A stretch of 64,000 nt of DNA from Thermoproteota archaeon (GCA_027491735.1 JAOZGP010000006.1:57066-121065); one strand, 5' to 3'; counted from the first letter of the stretch, positions 46,534-49,114 are shown. A program made the numbers and translations. The notes: generated from the sequence alone by a model not told the origin.

Positions 46534-46702
46534 AAAATAACTTGTGCTATAATGAACTGTATTAATATAATAATGTAGAAGCGATTAAAGATATATACTT
46601 ACGCTAGTAGATTTCAAAATATAGAAAGATCGGGAAGAAACCATCAAGAGGATCTAACCAGATGCGACCTCTATAGTTCCCAGGGCAAGATTTTGACATA
46701 GA

Positions 46703-47845
46703 CTAAACTGTGATGGTGTCTCTGGAACTTTCCGCTAGACCAAGATCGTCCGGGATAAGCCAGCCACTCTTCTTATCATATAACTCAGGATCAATATATT
46801 GGACGTAGATATGCTCTCTATCGACATGATGAAAGGAAAAGCTGCTGACAACTCCTTCTGAGCAGAGTTTCGACATCAATTCTAAAAATTTCTGTACATC
46901 CATACAGTGAAACTCGATTAATGCTAATACGCTATTCTTTCCAATTTGTTTTGATATACTATGGAGATAGGGAGTTTTAGATAGAGCGTAGGAGAAGCGC
47001 TCTGTAGTCTCAGTATCTGGAAAGTTAACTTTAACAAAGAAGATTTCAGATGCAGAAGGCGGATACCGTGGGAAGTATATGTAATAGCTTCTTATCAGCC
47101 GTTTTTTGATAACATGCTTATCAAAATGATATTTCAGTCCTGCTGGACTAATTCCTATCTTAGCTGCTATCTTAGACATCGAGAGCGCAGCATCTCTACT
47201 TAGTTCAGCCAATAACTTAAGATCTATTTTGTCCAAGCCTTTGTTGTCTTGCTTTTCAACGAGCTTAAGCCTTCCTTCATTCATTAAATCCTTAATTTTA
47301 TGTATATCAAATTTCCAAGGATTAAACTTTAAGCTCAGCTTAGAAAAATCAATCTGAGGCGTATAAGATTCACAGTATCTTTCAACAACATACGTACTGC
47401 TTGAATCTTCTCTTTGCAGAACTGCCTCAACGACTTCATCTAGTACATCCCGTTTCTCTGATGGAACTAGCATCTGGACGAACATATTGTAGATATTACC
47501 ATAAACCCTGTAAGTCTTAGCAGGAACTTTTAGGCCAGTGAAGATATCTTCTAGATGACTTATCTTTCTGTAATCTACCTTAATTCCCACAAAATTATTT
47601 GTCAGCCCTATCGACGTGATGGACGGCAAAGCCCTCACGACAATTTTAACATTCTCACGTAGTATTTTAAATCTGTAATATATTTTTTTAGAATTCTCTT
47701 TCAACATACGAGATATTGTAAAGAGGTTTCCTGGACCGTACTTATAGATTAAGGAGAGCAATCTCACATTCAGGGGATCGAGAAGCTTTTCTACTTTTTT
47801 ATAGTATTCTATAACCTCAACTGGTAGTTCGATATAACAGCTCAT
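46703..47845 (-). CDS. Tandem Lrp/AsnC-like wHTH transcriptional regulator
   Basis: Two HTH-plus-ferredoxin-like units: LDPLNVRLL...ISRMLK...IYYRF and LDKIDLKLLAELSRDA...IAAKIGISPAGLKYH. Confidence 0.8.
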   Translation of the reverse strand: MSCYIELPVEVIEYYKKVEKLLDPLNVRLLSLIYKYGPGNLFTISRMLKENSKKIYYRFKILRENVKIVVRALPSITSIGLTNNFVGIKVDYRKISHLEDIFTGLKVPAKTYRVYGNIYNMFVQMLVPSEKRDVLDEVVEAVLQREDSSSTYVVERYCESYTPQIDFSKLSLKFNPWKFDIHKIKDLMNEGRLKLVEKQDNKGLDKIDLKLLAELSRDAALSMSKIAAKIGISPAGLKYHFDKHVIKKRLIRSYYIYFPRYPPSASEIFFVKVNFPDTETTERFSYALSKTPYLHSISKQIGKNSVLALIEFHCMDVQKFLELMSKLCSEGVVSSFSFHHVDREHIYVQYIDPELYDKKSGWLIPDDLGLAESSRDTITV

Positions 47846-47947
47846 TGATAGCCCTCCAGGTTCTAGGTTTACGCCTTCACTAATGATGCTTTTTAATTTT
47901 TTCCAAAAATGTACTAAACATTCAAGGAAAAATTTAAAAGCTCAATC

Positions 47948-47965
47948 CTCCCAAAATTTTGGGAG
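47948..47965. promoter_or_regulatory. Perfect 18-bp palindrome between TATA and peptide start (putative operator)
   Basis: CTCCCAAAATTTTGGGAG; TTTAAAA at 47933-47939; ATG at 47971. Confidence 0.65.
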
Positions 47966-47970
47966 AAATC

Positions 47971-48153
47971 ATGAAGAAGATCCTGGTACTCCTGTCCGCC
48001 TGTATTGTAATCCTGTTATTGGCTGTTATTGTGCCGTCGCACTCCTCTGCTCCTGTCTTCAAGGAGAAAGCTCAGGACCCCGGACCAATAGGATCGCACT
48101 CCTCTGCTCCTGTCTTCAAGGAGAAAGCTCAGGACCCCGGACCAATAGGATGA
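47971..48153 (+). CDS. 60-aa secreted prepeptide with two identical 19-aa units
   Basis: MKK plus a hydrophobic signal stretch, then (SHSSAPVFKEKAQDPGPIG)x2; GGGAG SD and TATA upstream. Confidence 0.75.
   Translation: MKKILVLLSACIVILLLAVIVPSHSSAPVFKEKAQDPGPIGSHSSAPVFKEKAQDPGPIG
48037..48150 (+). repeat. Perfect 57-bp tandem duplication
   Basis: TCGCACTCC...CCAATAGGA at 48037-48093 and 48094-48150. Confidence 0.97.
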
Positions 48154-48198
48154 ATAATGCTTTAGATCACATGTTAACGTATTGAGGAGGTGTCTCGT

Positions 48199-48339
48199 AT
48201 GGATGACAACAAGAAGGGGCATGAGAAGAAGAAATCCAGGGACCCAACGCCTTTCAAGCTTCCAAGGGAGGTTCTCCAGCTCTACTACAAATTCGCTATG
48301 ACGGAGGGCATAAGGCTTCAGGAATGTCCAGACTTATAG
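48199..48339 (+). CDS. 46-aa small protein (below the ORF-track cutoff)
   Basis: SD GGAGGTG at 48186-48192; MDDNKKGHEKKKSRDPTPFKLPREVLQLYYKFAMTEGIRLQECPDL*; oligo-T tract follows. Confidence 0.7.
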   Translation: MDDNKKGHEKKKSRDPTPFKLPREVLQLYYKFAMTEGIRLQECPDL

Positions 48340-48370
48340 ATTATTTTTTACTTTTTATATTATTTTATAT
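48340..48370 (+). terminator. Oligo-T archaeal terminator
   Basis: ATTATTTTTTACTTTTTATATTATTTT directly after the small ORF stop. Confidence 0.55.
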
Positions 48371-48374
48371 TACA

Positions 48375-49072
48375 TTAGATCATCCTTGCCTCCAGAAAAC
48401 CTTTCATGAGGTTTAGTGCATCCACTCCTATCAATTCGTGATATCCTCCCTCGAGGACAAAAAAGGTGCTCCTGTCTAGATAACCTATGATCCTTCCTAT
48501 TCTCTTATAGCTTCTGGAGGTGAGCCCCAGCGAGGCAAGATCCCCTTTGTGAGCATTAATTTCTGGGTCGGCGCCCTAACAGCCCTAGTTGCCTGGGCGG
48601 TAGGGGCTGAGGCAGGCATCGAACCCGTGACGACCGTCTTCACCGCTATGGCTTCAGCCGTTTTCTCCGCCGCGTTCATGGTTCCCGCAACCACCTGGTT
48701 AGCATTCACGGCCTTCAGGAAGGGCTTAGATCCTGACAACCTGGTCGCTCCGATAGCGACACTCTTCGGCGACATGGTCACAGTCCCGACAATCATAGCT
48801 ATCTCATATATCCCAGGATATGTTGGGTCATATATCCCAGGATATGTTGGGGTTTCCGGATCCCATTCCCTTCCCTCGGCCAAAGCCTTCAGGTACTCCT
48901 TGGCGTGAACCTCCTTTAGAAGATCCTCCGGAGCAGGATCCGGATTCACAAATTCGAATCCAGCAGATCTCAAGGATTCAATGATCCTGATGACCCTCAG
49001 AGGGTTTTCTATGTGATTTCTTCCGTACTCGAGGCATCTCTCGGAGAACACAACTTTCACACAGATCCCCAT
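48375..49072 (-). pseudogene. Histone deacetylase-family gene whose core is replaced by an inverted MgtE-like fragment
   Basis: N-terminal HIENPLRV...EVHAKEY (48800-49072) and C-terminal FFVLEGGY (48375-48520). The + strand in between reads RKGLDPDNLVAPIATLFGD (MgtE/SLC41). A 24-bp tandem duplication lies at 48804-48851. Confidence 0.75.
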
Positions 49073-49114
49073 AGAACCTCCCAAGTCTTTATCTATAACT
49101 GTGCTCAAGTCCTC

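Follow-up and report, generated by a model that had tools for sequence, protein, structure and literature searches.

Organization of the Locus

The subject of this analysis is a compact locus in a 64,000-nucleotide stretch of DNA from a hot-spring archaeon (GCA_027491735.1, JAOZGP010000006.1:57066-121065; hereafter the window, meaning the whole stretch), which lies on contig C27 of a metagenome-assembled genome of Candidatus Methanodesulfokora (Korarchaeia), an assembly of 1.36 Mb that is 88% complete. In this locus, the gene of a tandem Lrp/AsnC-like protein diverges from a small gene whose product combines a signal-peptide-like N-terminus with two identical repeat units; the pair is a real, conserved and undescribed module, and it may constitute a peptide-sensing, quorum-like gene circuit. 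Such a circuit had been proposed from the sequence alone (the original prediction), together with its elements, namely the regulator, the peptide open reading frame (ORF), a second small ORF, T-runs, a palindrome and an AT-rich islet, and all of them were found in place.

The putative peptide-sensing regulator, a protein of 380 amino acids (aa), is encoded on the minus strand at 46703..47845, as defined by ORF calling, Pfam, AlphaFold2 (AF2) and Foldseek. On the other side of a 125-bp intergenic spacer, and in divergent orientation, ORF calling gives the 60-aa peptide ORF (47971..48153, plus strand), whose product begins with a signal-peptide-like segment (aa 1-22, MKK followed by 19 hydrophobic residues; 47971..48036) and continues with two identical 19-aa units, SHSSAPVFKEKAQDPGPIG, of 57 bp each (48037..48150); here and throughout, signal peptides were called on hydrophobicity criteria. 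A 46-aa small ORF ending in QECPDL (48199..48339, plus strand, from ORF calling) comes directly after the peptide gene and is co-oriented with it, with a Shine-Dalgarno-like motif, GAGGAGGTG (48184..48192, plus strand), read 6 nt before its ATG. Finally, the oligo-T runs T6, T5 and T4 (48344..48366, plus strand), also noted by sequence reading, probably act as an archaeal terminator for the transcript of the peptide gene and the small ORF; a bacterial hairpin scan found no hairpin terminator at 48344-48366.

Regarding base composition, the GC content is 0.38 over 46534-48375, against 0.47 in the window and 0.495 in the genome. The regulator gene itself has a GC content of 0.33-0.37 and is AT-rich in all four genomes of the genus, so the AT-richness of the locus is a property of the gene and not a sign of recent insertion. 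These four genomes are denoted G000, the window's own genome, and G001, G002 and G003, three others of the same genus; L numbers refer to individual loci.

The Peptide Gene and Its Repeats

In the window, the two units are encoded by a 57-bp tandem repeat of 2.0 copies with 100% identity (48037..48151, Tandem Repeats Finder), which bears out the initial description of the 60-aa ORF as a hydrophobic N-terminus followed by just two identical units. The three other genomes of the genus have a full-length homologue of the regulator (46, 40 and 38% identity), and in all three it is accompanied by a divergent signal-peptide ORF with tandem units and DPxP; the repeated unit is LAPSPLLKEKAQDPDP in G001 (at least 2.5 copies, the ORF being cut by the contig end), KLVDPAPLSTSVG in G002 (3 copies) and KIVDPGPLSTSAAPVG in G003 (2.7 copies). 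A metagenome scan returned 16 loci, five of which are of the Methanodesulfokora type (L095-L099), and the peptide gene is present in all five. L099 is the G003 contig, L095 repeats the G002-type peptide, and L098, with the unit KLVDPFPLSTSAAPVD, is apparently protein P0003, already counted; L096 has four units of the G003 type, and L097 has the unit KLIDPDPLSASTVG.

At the DNA level, the repeat is 100% identical in every genus-type locus, with periods of 39, 42, 48 or 57 bp, and the units share the core D-P-x-P-(L/I), in which x is G, D, A or F among close relatives. The number of units varies between near-identical genes: those of the G002 type encode 35, 48 and 61 aa, corresponding to 1, 2 and 3 units, and those of the G003 type 67 and 83 aa, corresponding to 3 and 4 units; assembly collapse may contribute to both series. 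The one-unit form of 35 aa consists of the signal peptide plus about 13 residues and, judging from its sequence, leaves a free short peptide and not a folded domain. With homologues of 35-83 aa, and with a one-unit form in existence, the peptide ORF is not the stub of a longer secreted protein, an outcome that had been named as fatal to the original prediction.

The units differ between species, and the third-position synonymous differences between the window and G001 retain KEKAQDP, which shows selection on the peptide reading frame; in a cluster of Bathyarchaeota peptides, conservative substitutions and an in-frame Gly indel were observed. These changes bear on the possibility that the repeat and the ORF are artefacts, arising from an assembly duplication or from a chance ORF in an AT-rich spacer. 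A second perfect tandem duplication (24 bp, 48804-48851), located about 650 bp away at an apparently chimeric junction, lends this some colour, whereas six independent loci besides the window (G001, G002, G003, L096, L097 and L098) have perfect repeats of 39-48 bp, and the reading frame, the signal peptide and the DPxP core are kept through synonymous changes; the artefact reading is close to refuted. As for known families, matches of the peptide family to DUF4017 (E 0.28) and to Phr_nterm TIGR04429 (E 0.22; 12.1 bits against a cut-off of 25) were non-significant and were not used.

Fold and Family of the Regulator

The description of the regulator as tandem Lrp/AsnC-like proved correct. The AF2 model, built from seven homologues (pLDDT 74.8, pTM 0.72), has two tandem units, each composed of a three-helix winged helix-turn-helix (wHTH) and a β-α-β-β-α-β domain, and in Foldseek each half matches single Lrp/AsnC regulators (PH0061, ST1022, AsnC and Lrp; 2dbb, 2e7w, 3i4p and 2gqq); beyond the fused Lrp-type units, the protein carries a conserved C-terminal extension. 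At the level of sequence profiles, Pfam detects the second HTH alone in the window regulator (HTH_24, 1.3e-8, and HTH_AsnC-type, 5.2e-8, at aa 204-242), and the first HTH is detected in the G003 orthologue (HTH_AsnC-type, aa 22-59, 6.1e-6). The AsnC_trans_reg (RAM) profile of Pfam is unmatched in the regulator at E ≤ 1, and the RAM-type effector domain was recognized by fold, from the order of secondary structures in the AF2 model and from Foldseek. By its modelled structure, the regulator is a tandem Lrp/AsnC-like protein.

Over its full length, the regulator matches NirDL (4ch7) in Foldseek, with E 1.9e-12, TM scores of 0.55/0.65 and 10% identity. Membership in the siroheme decarboxylases was considered and rejected, as it finds agreement neither in the sequence nor in a haem/d1 gene context.

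A profile search over 1.84 billion representatives gave 2198 hits at E ≤ 1e-3, 333 at E ≤ 1e-10 and 63 at E ≤ 1e-30, mostly of 350-410 aa, with public names of either "hypothetical protein" or "DNA-binding Lrp family transcriptional regulator". The family is present in 7 of the 43 Korarchaeota genomes searched, the window's own included, and in 83 of 301 sampled genomes of Bathyarchaeia, the class of locus L031.

Pairing of Regulator and Peptide Genes across Archaea

The association with a small ORF extends well beyond the genus. In Bathyarchaeia, homologues of the regulator with 23-26% identity are directly preceded by a co-oriented small signal-peptide ORF, with GDPVPG-like tails such as GGGGDPVPGPGVPK, GGGDPVPGGGIPK, GLSDPVPGGPGGGGYD and ILGDPVDDVKPH; in G037, a member of another family of Korarchaeota, the adjacent ORF has two GPGSGGG motifs. 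For counting purposes, a small ORF had to encode 35-110 aa, with a hydrophobic window of 12 residues after K or R and no second hydrophobic segment, and to lie at most 330 bp upstream of the regulator (250 bp in the background test), either co-oriented or divergent. By these criteria, 23 of 45 regulator loci were positive; the exclusion of L068 and L073, judged spurious, and the inclusion of L004, whose ORF runs into the end of its contig, led to 22/45, to be compared with 35 of 974 ORFs of at least 200 aa in G000 (Fisher p = 6e-18, related genomes not being independent). Among the 35 background positives, a DPxP tail occurs in the window locus alone, and the criteria are conservative, since L101 has such a peptide yet failed them. 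The pairing of the regulator with a small ORF is beyond chance, and homologous regulators, both in the genus loci and in Bathyarchaeia, do have neighbouring signal-peptide ORFs with DPxP-like tails, as the original prediction anticipated.

On a quick maximum-likelihood tree, in which several long branches were flagged, the pairing fills clades: 4/4 in Methanodesulfokora, 13/13 in a Bathyarchaeia clade and 4/6 in a mixed clade. Regarding the tails, the pattern D-[PETD]-x-[PDGS] occurs within the last 20 residues in 18 of the 21 complete peptides and DPxP in 9 of them, while 15 of the 21 have at least eight D, E, P or G residues among the last 15. Apart from close relatives, the 22 peptide-bearing loci have no further conserved gene family next to the pair; it is therefore a minimal two-gene module, like the RRNPP cassettes of bacteria. 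In L105 (1186-1416), a family member of 23% identity comes after a signal-peptide ORF of 76 aa in which cysteines separate three GDPVEG motifs; this looks like a second, independent case of motif repetition.

In many Bathyarchaeia, two tandem-Lrp paralogues (∼400 and ∼433 aa) are convergent and ∼200 bp apart; the loci with this arrangement include L058, L061, L064, L065, L067, L068, L071, L073 and L079, and they belong to a peptide-less clade that is discussed with the proposed circuit. Upstream of the second convergent paralogue, no convincing peptide ORF was seen in nine genomes; the regions inspected began inside those genes, which makes this negative an incomplete one.

Predicted Complex of Regulator and Peptide

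Complex prediction was applied to one pair: the regulator of the window, entered together with its alignment, and the peptide from residue 23 to residue 60. The ipSAE values were 0.79, 0.77 and 0.76, against 0.01 for the best of three controls, and the runs share at least 81% of the contacts; in the calibration, 58 of 80 solved complexes reached the mark of the tool, as did 2 of 110 mismatched pairs. Confident contacts involve V48 and K50-G60 of the peptide, that is, the tail KEKAQDPGPIG of the second unit, and residues 69-126 and 255-351 of the regulator; these lie in both effector-like halves, and the model puts the tail in the cleft between them. Co-folding, which the original prediction had put forward as a check, thus places the tail containing QDPGPIG on the regulator (score 0.77 against 0.01 for the best control) and, as far as a model can, supports binding of the peptide by the regulator. 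The contacted region is also the ligand-binding region of Lrp-family proteins.

A further observation concerns positions 99-100 of the regulator: G000 and G001 have E-D there, G002 and G003 K-R or K-K. This charge swap goes along with whether the peptide contains KEK or lacks it; with two subclades only, it is no more than a hint.

The main rival to the signaling circuit is a plain regulator-target pair, in which the peptide would be an exported effector (an antimicrobial, a surface or matrix component, or a metal or mineral binder) and the regulator would sense some other small ligand, with no feedback. The RAM domains of Lrp/AsnC proteins bind amino acids, regulators are frequently encoded beside their targets, the two genes have neither an importer nor a protease linked to them, and tails as acidic and as rich in Pro and Gly as those of 15 of the 21 peptides could act outside the cell. 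This rival accounts less well for the docking prediction, in which the conserved tail lies in the cleft between the domains and the controls score 0.01, for the fact that the best-conserved part of the peptide is a short motif and not a fold, and for the one-unit form, which retains merely ∼13 residues past the signal peptide; we consider it unlikely, while giving it more weight than any other alternative to the peptide-sensing circuit.

Promoter Region and Palindrome

The intergenic spacer holds an AT-rich inverted repeat, 47888-47901 and 47928-47941, with arms of 14 nt that are 93% complementary. Comparable AT-rich inverted boxes occur in the intergenic regions of G001 and G002, with conserved columns in the intergenic alignment, and the general architecture of archaeal promoters suggests that they are back-to-back B recognition element (BRE)/TATA elements. 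In the window, the left arm (47888..47901, minus strand) would be the BRE/TATA of the regulator gene, and the right arm (47928..47941, plus strand) that of the peptide gene, ∼30-40 nt before its ATG at 47971; the inverted-repeat scan and the alignment bear on both arms.

Sequence reading also gives a perfect 18-bp palindrome, CTCCCAAAATTTTGGGAG (47948..47965, not assigned to a strand), a candidate operator that occurs once in the window. It is located between the TATA and the ATG of the peptide gene, and it overlaps the predicted transcription start and a GGGAG Shine-Dalgarno-like motif; a site over the transcription start, between TATA and ATG, is a typical position for an archaeal repressor. 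The corresponding position holds a 14-bp near-palindrome in G003 and, by eye, 6-bp arms with a 7-nt spacer in G001; no dyad symmetry was found at this position in the intergenic region of G002.

The short back-to-back promoter region shared by both genes also suits another explanation, namely that the regulator captures the not yet exported precursor by its tail within the cell, as a secretion feedback or as a holding factor, in a cell-autonomous manner. The predicted binding is silent on where the partners meet, and the absence of a genetically linked import system agrees with such an internal role. However, a Sec-type signal peptide and tandem release units would be costly for a purely internal signal, the copy-number variation of identical units is best explained by the release of several free peptides, and Opp-type binding proteins are encoded in the genome; binding before export is therefore judged rather improbable, and the peptide-sensing circuit, with its external step, remains the reading that we prefer.

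The 46-aa ORF and the SPASM Protein

The 46-aa ORF is conserved within the genus, with eight aligned sequences and 13 invariant columns, and it ends in Q-x-CPDL; one variant differs by three R-to-K changes. It is confined to the genus. In G002 and G003, the small ORF starts 9-12 nt after the peptide gene. Its product has no hydrophobic segment, the AF2 model is of low confidence (pLDDT 64.7), with a single helix at 23-41, and no Pfam or NCBIfam family was found; the best Atlas score, 0.83 for the fungal DUF7730, is under the lead level and this candidate was rejected.

In G002 and G003, the gene order is peptide, 42-43-aa ORF and SPASM-domain protein, with gaps of 6-12 nt. The SPASM-domain protein of these two genomes has 436-445 aa (TIGR04085, 5e-10; Pfam SPASM, 1.2e-5); across the genus, it has 436-455 aa and a C-terminal SPASM domain with 7-9 Cys, and its loci include G000:C28:34194-35519 (L026), L023 (1939-3249) and L024 (2002-3339). 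The protein is restricted to the genus, being present in 4 of 43 Korarchaeota genomes, and its gene stands beside the peptide and small-ORF genes in just two of the four genus genomes; in G000 and G001, it is found elsewhere, after a UDP-GlcNAc 2-epimerase gene. Genes for thymidine kinase and endonuclease III follow the SPASM gene in G000, G002 and G003.

A link of the SPASM gene to the cassette in the manner of the ribosomally synthesized and post-translationally modified peptides (RiPPs) is possible, though not conserved. In such a pathway, the SPASM protein would act as a modifying enzyme on the repeat peptide or on the small protein, and the Lrp-like protein would be a regulator, a peptide-binding helper or an enzyme similar to NirDL or AhbAB. 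The gene order and short gaps in G002 and G003 speak for it, as do the confinement of the SPASM protein to the genus and the top structural match of the regulator, which is the enzyme NirDL. On the other side are the separate location of the SPASM gene in G000 and G001, the lack of the CxxxCxxC radical-SAM motif in all four SPASM orthologues, the Bathyarchaeia pairs, which have no SPASM neighbour, and the Pfam and NCBIfam scans, which gave no NirD/AhbA-type family for the regulator; in addition, RiPP precursors do not, to our knowledge, usually have Sec-type signal peptides. We give this pathway a very small chance.

Neighbouring Genes

In the window, the neighbours of the cassette are a PP-loop/TtuA-like gene, the remnant of a deacetylase gene, a glycosyltransferase gene and a nitroreductase gene. 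The PP-loop/TtuA-like gene directly adjoins the regulator, unlike in G001 (L004, 1499-2225), where the two are separated by a PIN-domain-like ORF and a small ORF upstream of it, a couple that is VapBC-like, judged by eye alone.

The deacetylase gene (Hist_deacetyl-like, minus strand) is interrupted at 48378-49108: its N-terminal part (∼48830-49108) and its C-terminal part (48378-48560) flank an inverted fragment on the plus strand (48549 to ∼48830), which corresponds to the C-terminus of an MgtE-type transporter (Pfam MgtE, 1.8e-7). The perfect 24-bp tandem duplication at 48804-48851 falls at one of the deacetylase/MgtE junctions, and the assembly contains no further copy of either the deacetylase or the MgtE-type gene; the interrupted gene is either a pseudogene due to rearrangement or an assembly chimera. 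Finally, a tandem array at positions 545-697 of the window has a period of 64 bp, 2.4 copies and 81% matches, and its spacing would suit a short CRISPR-like repeat-spacer array.

Proposed Circuit

The explanation that we favour is that the locus is a peptide-sensing, quorum-like gene circuit, and we regard the chances of this being right as about even. The 60-aa product would be exported by the Sec route and lose its signal peptide, leaving two identical 19-aa units (one to four units in relatives), each with a D-P-x-P-(I/L) core; the units would then be separated outside the cell and taken up again, perhaps via Opp/Dpp-type binding proteins. Three genes for proteins of this type (SBP_bac_5) are present in G000, which shows merely that such importers may exist. 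Inside the cell, the tail KEKAQDPGPIG is predicted to bind the cleft between the RAM-like halves of the divergently encoded tandem Lrp/AsnC protein, and this binding would alter what the regulator does at the back-to-back promoter of the two genes, possibly through the 18-bp palindrome; the result would be an autoinducing loop dependent on density or confinement. The number of repeats would set the yield of ligand per precursor, and copy number may shift fast by slippage or unequal exchange, which would also keep the units identical.

Several findings weigh against this circuit. With regard to the complex, the docking is a measure of model confidence for one pair, with a pLDDT of 48-53 for the peptide partner, and the predicted interface is no more conserved than the rest of the protein (mean entropy 2.26 versus 2.05, in the peptide-associated regulators); the latter fits a diversifying specificity, though it is no evidence for it. 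In structure, the regulator comes closest over its full length to an enzyme, the siroheme decarboxylase NirDL, and an Lrp fold with HTH is therefore no proof of DNA binding. In G002 and G003, 6-10 further residues follow the DPxP core, and thus the ligand need not be a free C-terminus. As for the pairing, a clade of ∼400-aa regulators has the peptide ORF in 0 of 18 loci by the criteria used. In a small and noisy control on flanking genes of the regulator loci, 3 of 19 had a small signal-peptide ORF beside them, and the 22 peptide-bearing loci show neither a processing protease nor a dedicated transporter linked to the two genes. Finally, the palindrome is ordinary by count: 64 kb contain one perfect 18-bp case, and 30 block shuffles gave 0.43 on average and 2 at most, which led us to reject it as a statistical signal. 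Nor do the orthologous loci retain its sequence.

The interpretation given in the original prediction is supported in part. The pairing in homologues, the independence of the peptide ORF from any longer protein, the tandem fold and the predicted docking all speak for it; the palindrome is present, perfect and located between the peptide TATA and the ATG, whereas it is neither unusual nor conserved, and the 46-aa ORF is restricted to the genus.

A broader proposal can be made, with distinctly less confidence than for the locus itself: that a widespread archaeal family of tandem Lrp/AsnC proteins, in Bathyarchaeia and Korarchaeia, could serve as cytoplasmic receptors for Sec-exported D-P-x-P or Gly-rich peptides, and would thus provide the first ribosomal-peptide quorum sensing of Archaea, with an origin separate from that of the bacterial TPR receptors. 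The Methanodesulfokora precursor would be reduced to a signal peptide plus a fast-changing ligand array, with the dose given by the number of repeats and the specificity ("pherotype") by the x of DPxP. We advance it tentatively, and doubt prevails.

The interest of the module comes from the scarcity of comparable knowledge, as archaeal cell-to-cell signaling is almost unknown at the gene level and a conserved, compact module of peptide and receptor would be a directly testable system. If the proposal is true, peptide communication has evolved twice, using receptors of unrelated fold, and the ligand range of Lrp/AsnC effector domains extends from amino acids to peptides; the perfect repeats of variable copy number, for their part, suggest a simple genetic tuning of the signal output. 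If the signaling reading fails, the pair is still an undescribed regulator-target module in a large share of Bathyarchaeia.

Comparison with Known Systems

In line with the original prediction, whose author knew of no such circuit in archaea, no description of a tandem-Lrp/exported-peptide pair was found in the main texts of open-access papers and preprints. The introduction of PMC12240190 counts three described cases only of true archaeal quorum sensing, and names filI of Methanosaeta harundinacea as the sole empirically linked archaeal quorum-sensing gene (PMC12240190). None of those described archaeal cases is a ribosomal peptide.

Single Lrp/AsnC regulators, such as Sulfolobus tokodaii ST1022/Grp (2e7w), Pyrococcus PH1519/FL11 (2e1c), E. 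coli Lrp (2gqq) and AsnC (2cg4), resemble the window regulator in having a wHTH and an effector domain, here found in each half, and in the location of the ligand site, which is predicted between two effector domains. They differ from it in being single units of ∼150 aa that form dimers or octamers and sense amino acids, whereas the window protein is a two-unit fusion of 380 aa and is predicted to bind the 11-residue tail of a peptide in place of an amino acid.

The siroheme decarboxylases NirDL and AhbA-AhbB (4ch7, 4czd) are the sole solved tandem or heterodimeric Lrp-like architecture that matches the full length, and their ligand is likewise placed between effector-like domains. The differences are the identity of 10%, the lack of any such family in the Pfam and NCBIfam scans, and the lack of haem/d1 genes among the ORFs around the locus.

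The precursor calls to mind that of the yeast α-factor, in which a signal peptide is followed by several identical short peptide copies; the yeast system is eukaryotic, it relies on Kex2 processing at spacers and on a membrane G protein-coupled receptor, and the likeness implies no homology.

The closest parallel in organization is found in the RRNPP-type cassettes of Bacillota and their phages (Rap-Phr, NprR-NprX, PlcR-PapR, Rgg-SHP, PrgX and AimR-AimP), in which a TPR receptor is encoded beside the gene of an exported pro-peptide. The archaeal pair shares with them the two-gene module, with a putative cytoplasmic receptor-regulator adjacent to a small pro-peptide gene whose product is predicted to be exported; a conserved, presumably active part of the peptide that is a short stretch towards the C-terminus; the lack of a dedicated exporter, protease or importer linked to the genes; and a peptide that varies among close relatives. 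It differs in its archaeal hosts (Korarchaeia and Bathyarchaeia), in the D-P-x-P or Gly-rich core, in the perfect tandem array of Methanodesulfokora, and in the receptor, which has a tandem Lrp/AsnC fold and no TPR domain according to Pfam, NCBIfam and AF2. The layout that the original prediction had likened to these cassettes is thus present in the adjacent pro-peptide gene and departs from them in the receptor, as it had also foreseen; without a TPR receptor, the archaeal pair is not a member of the RRNPP group, though its logic matches.

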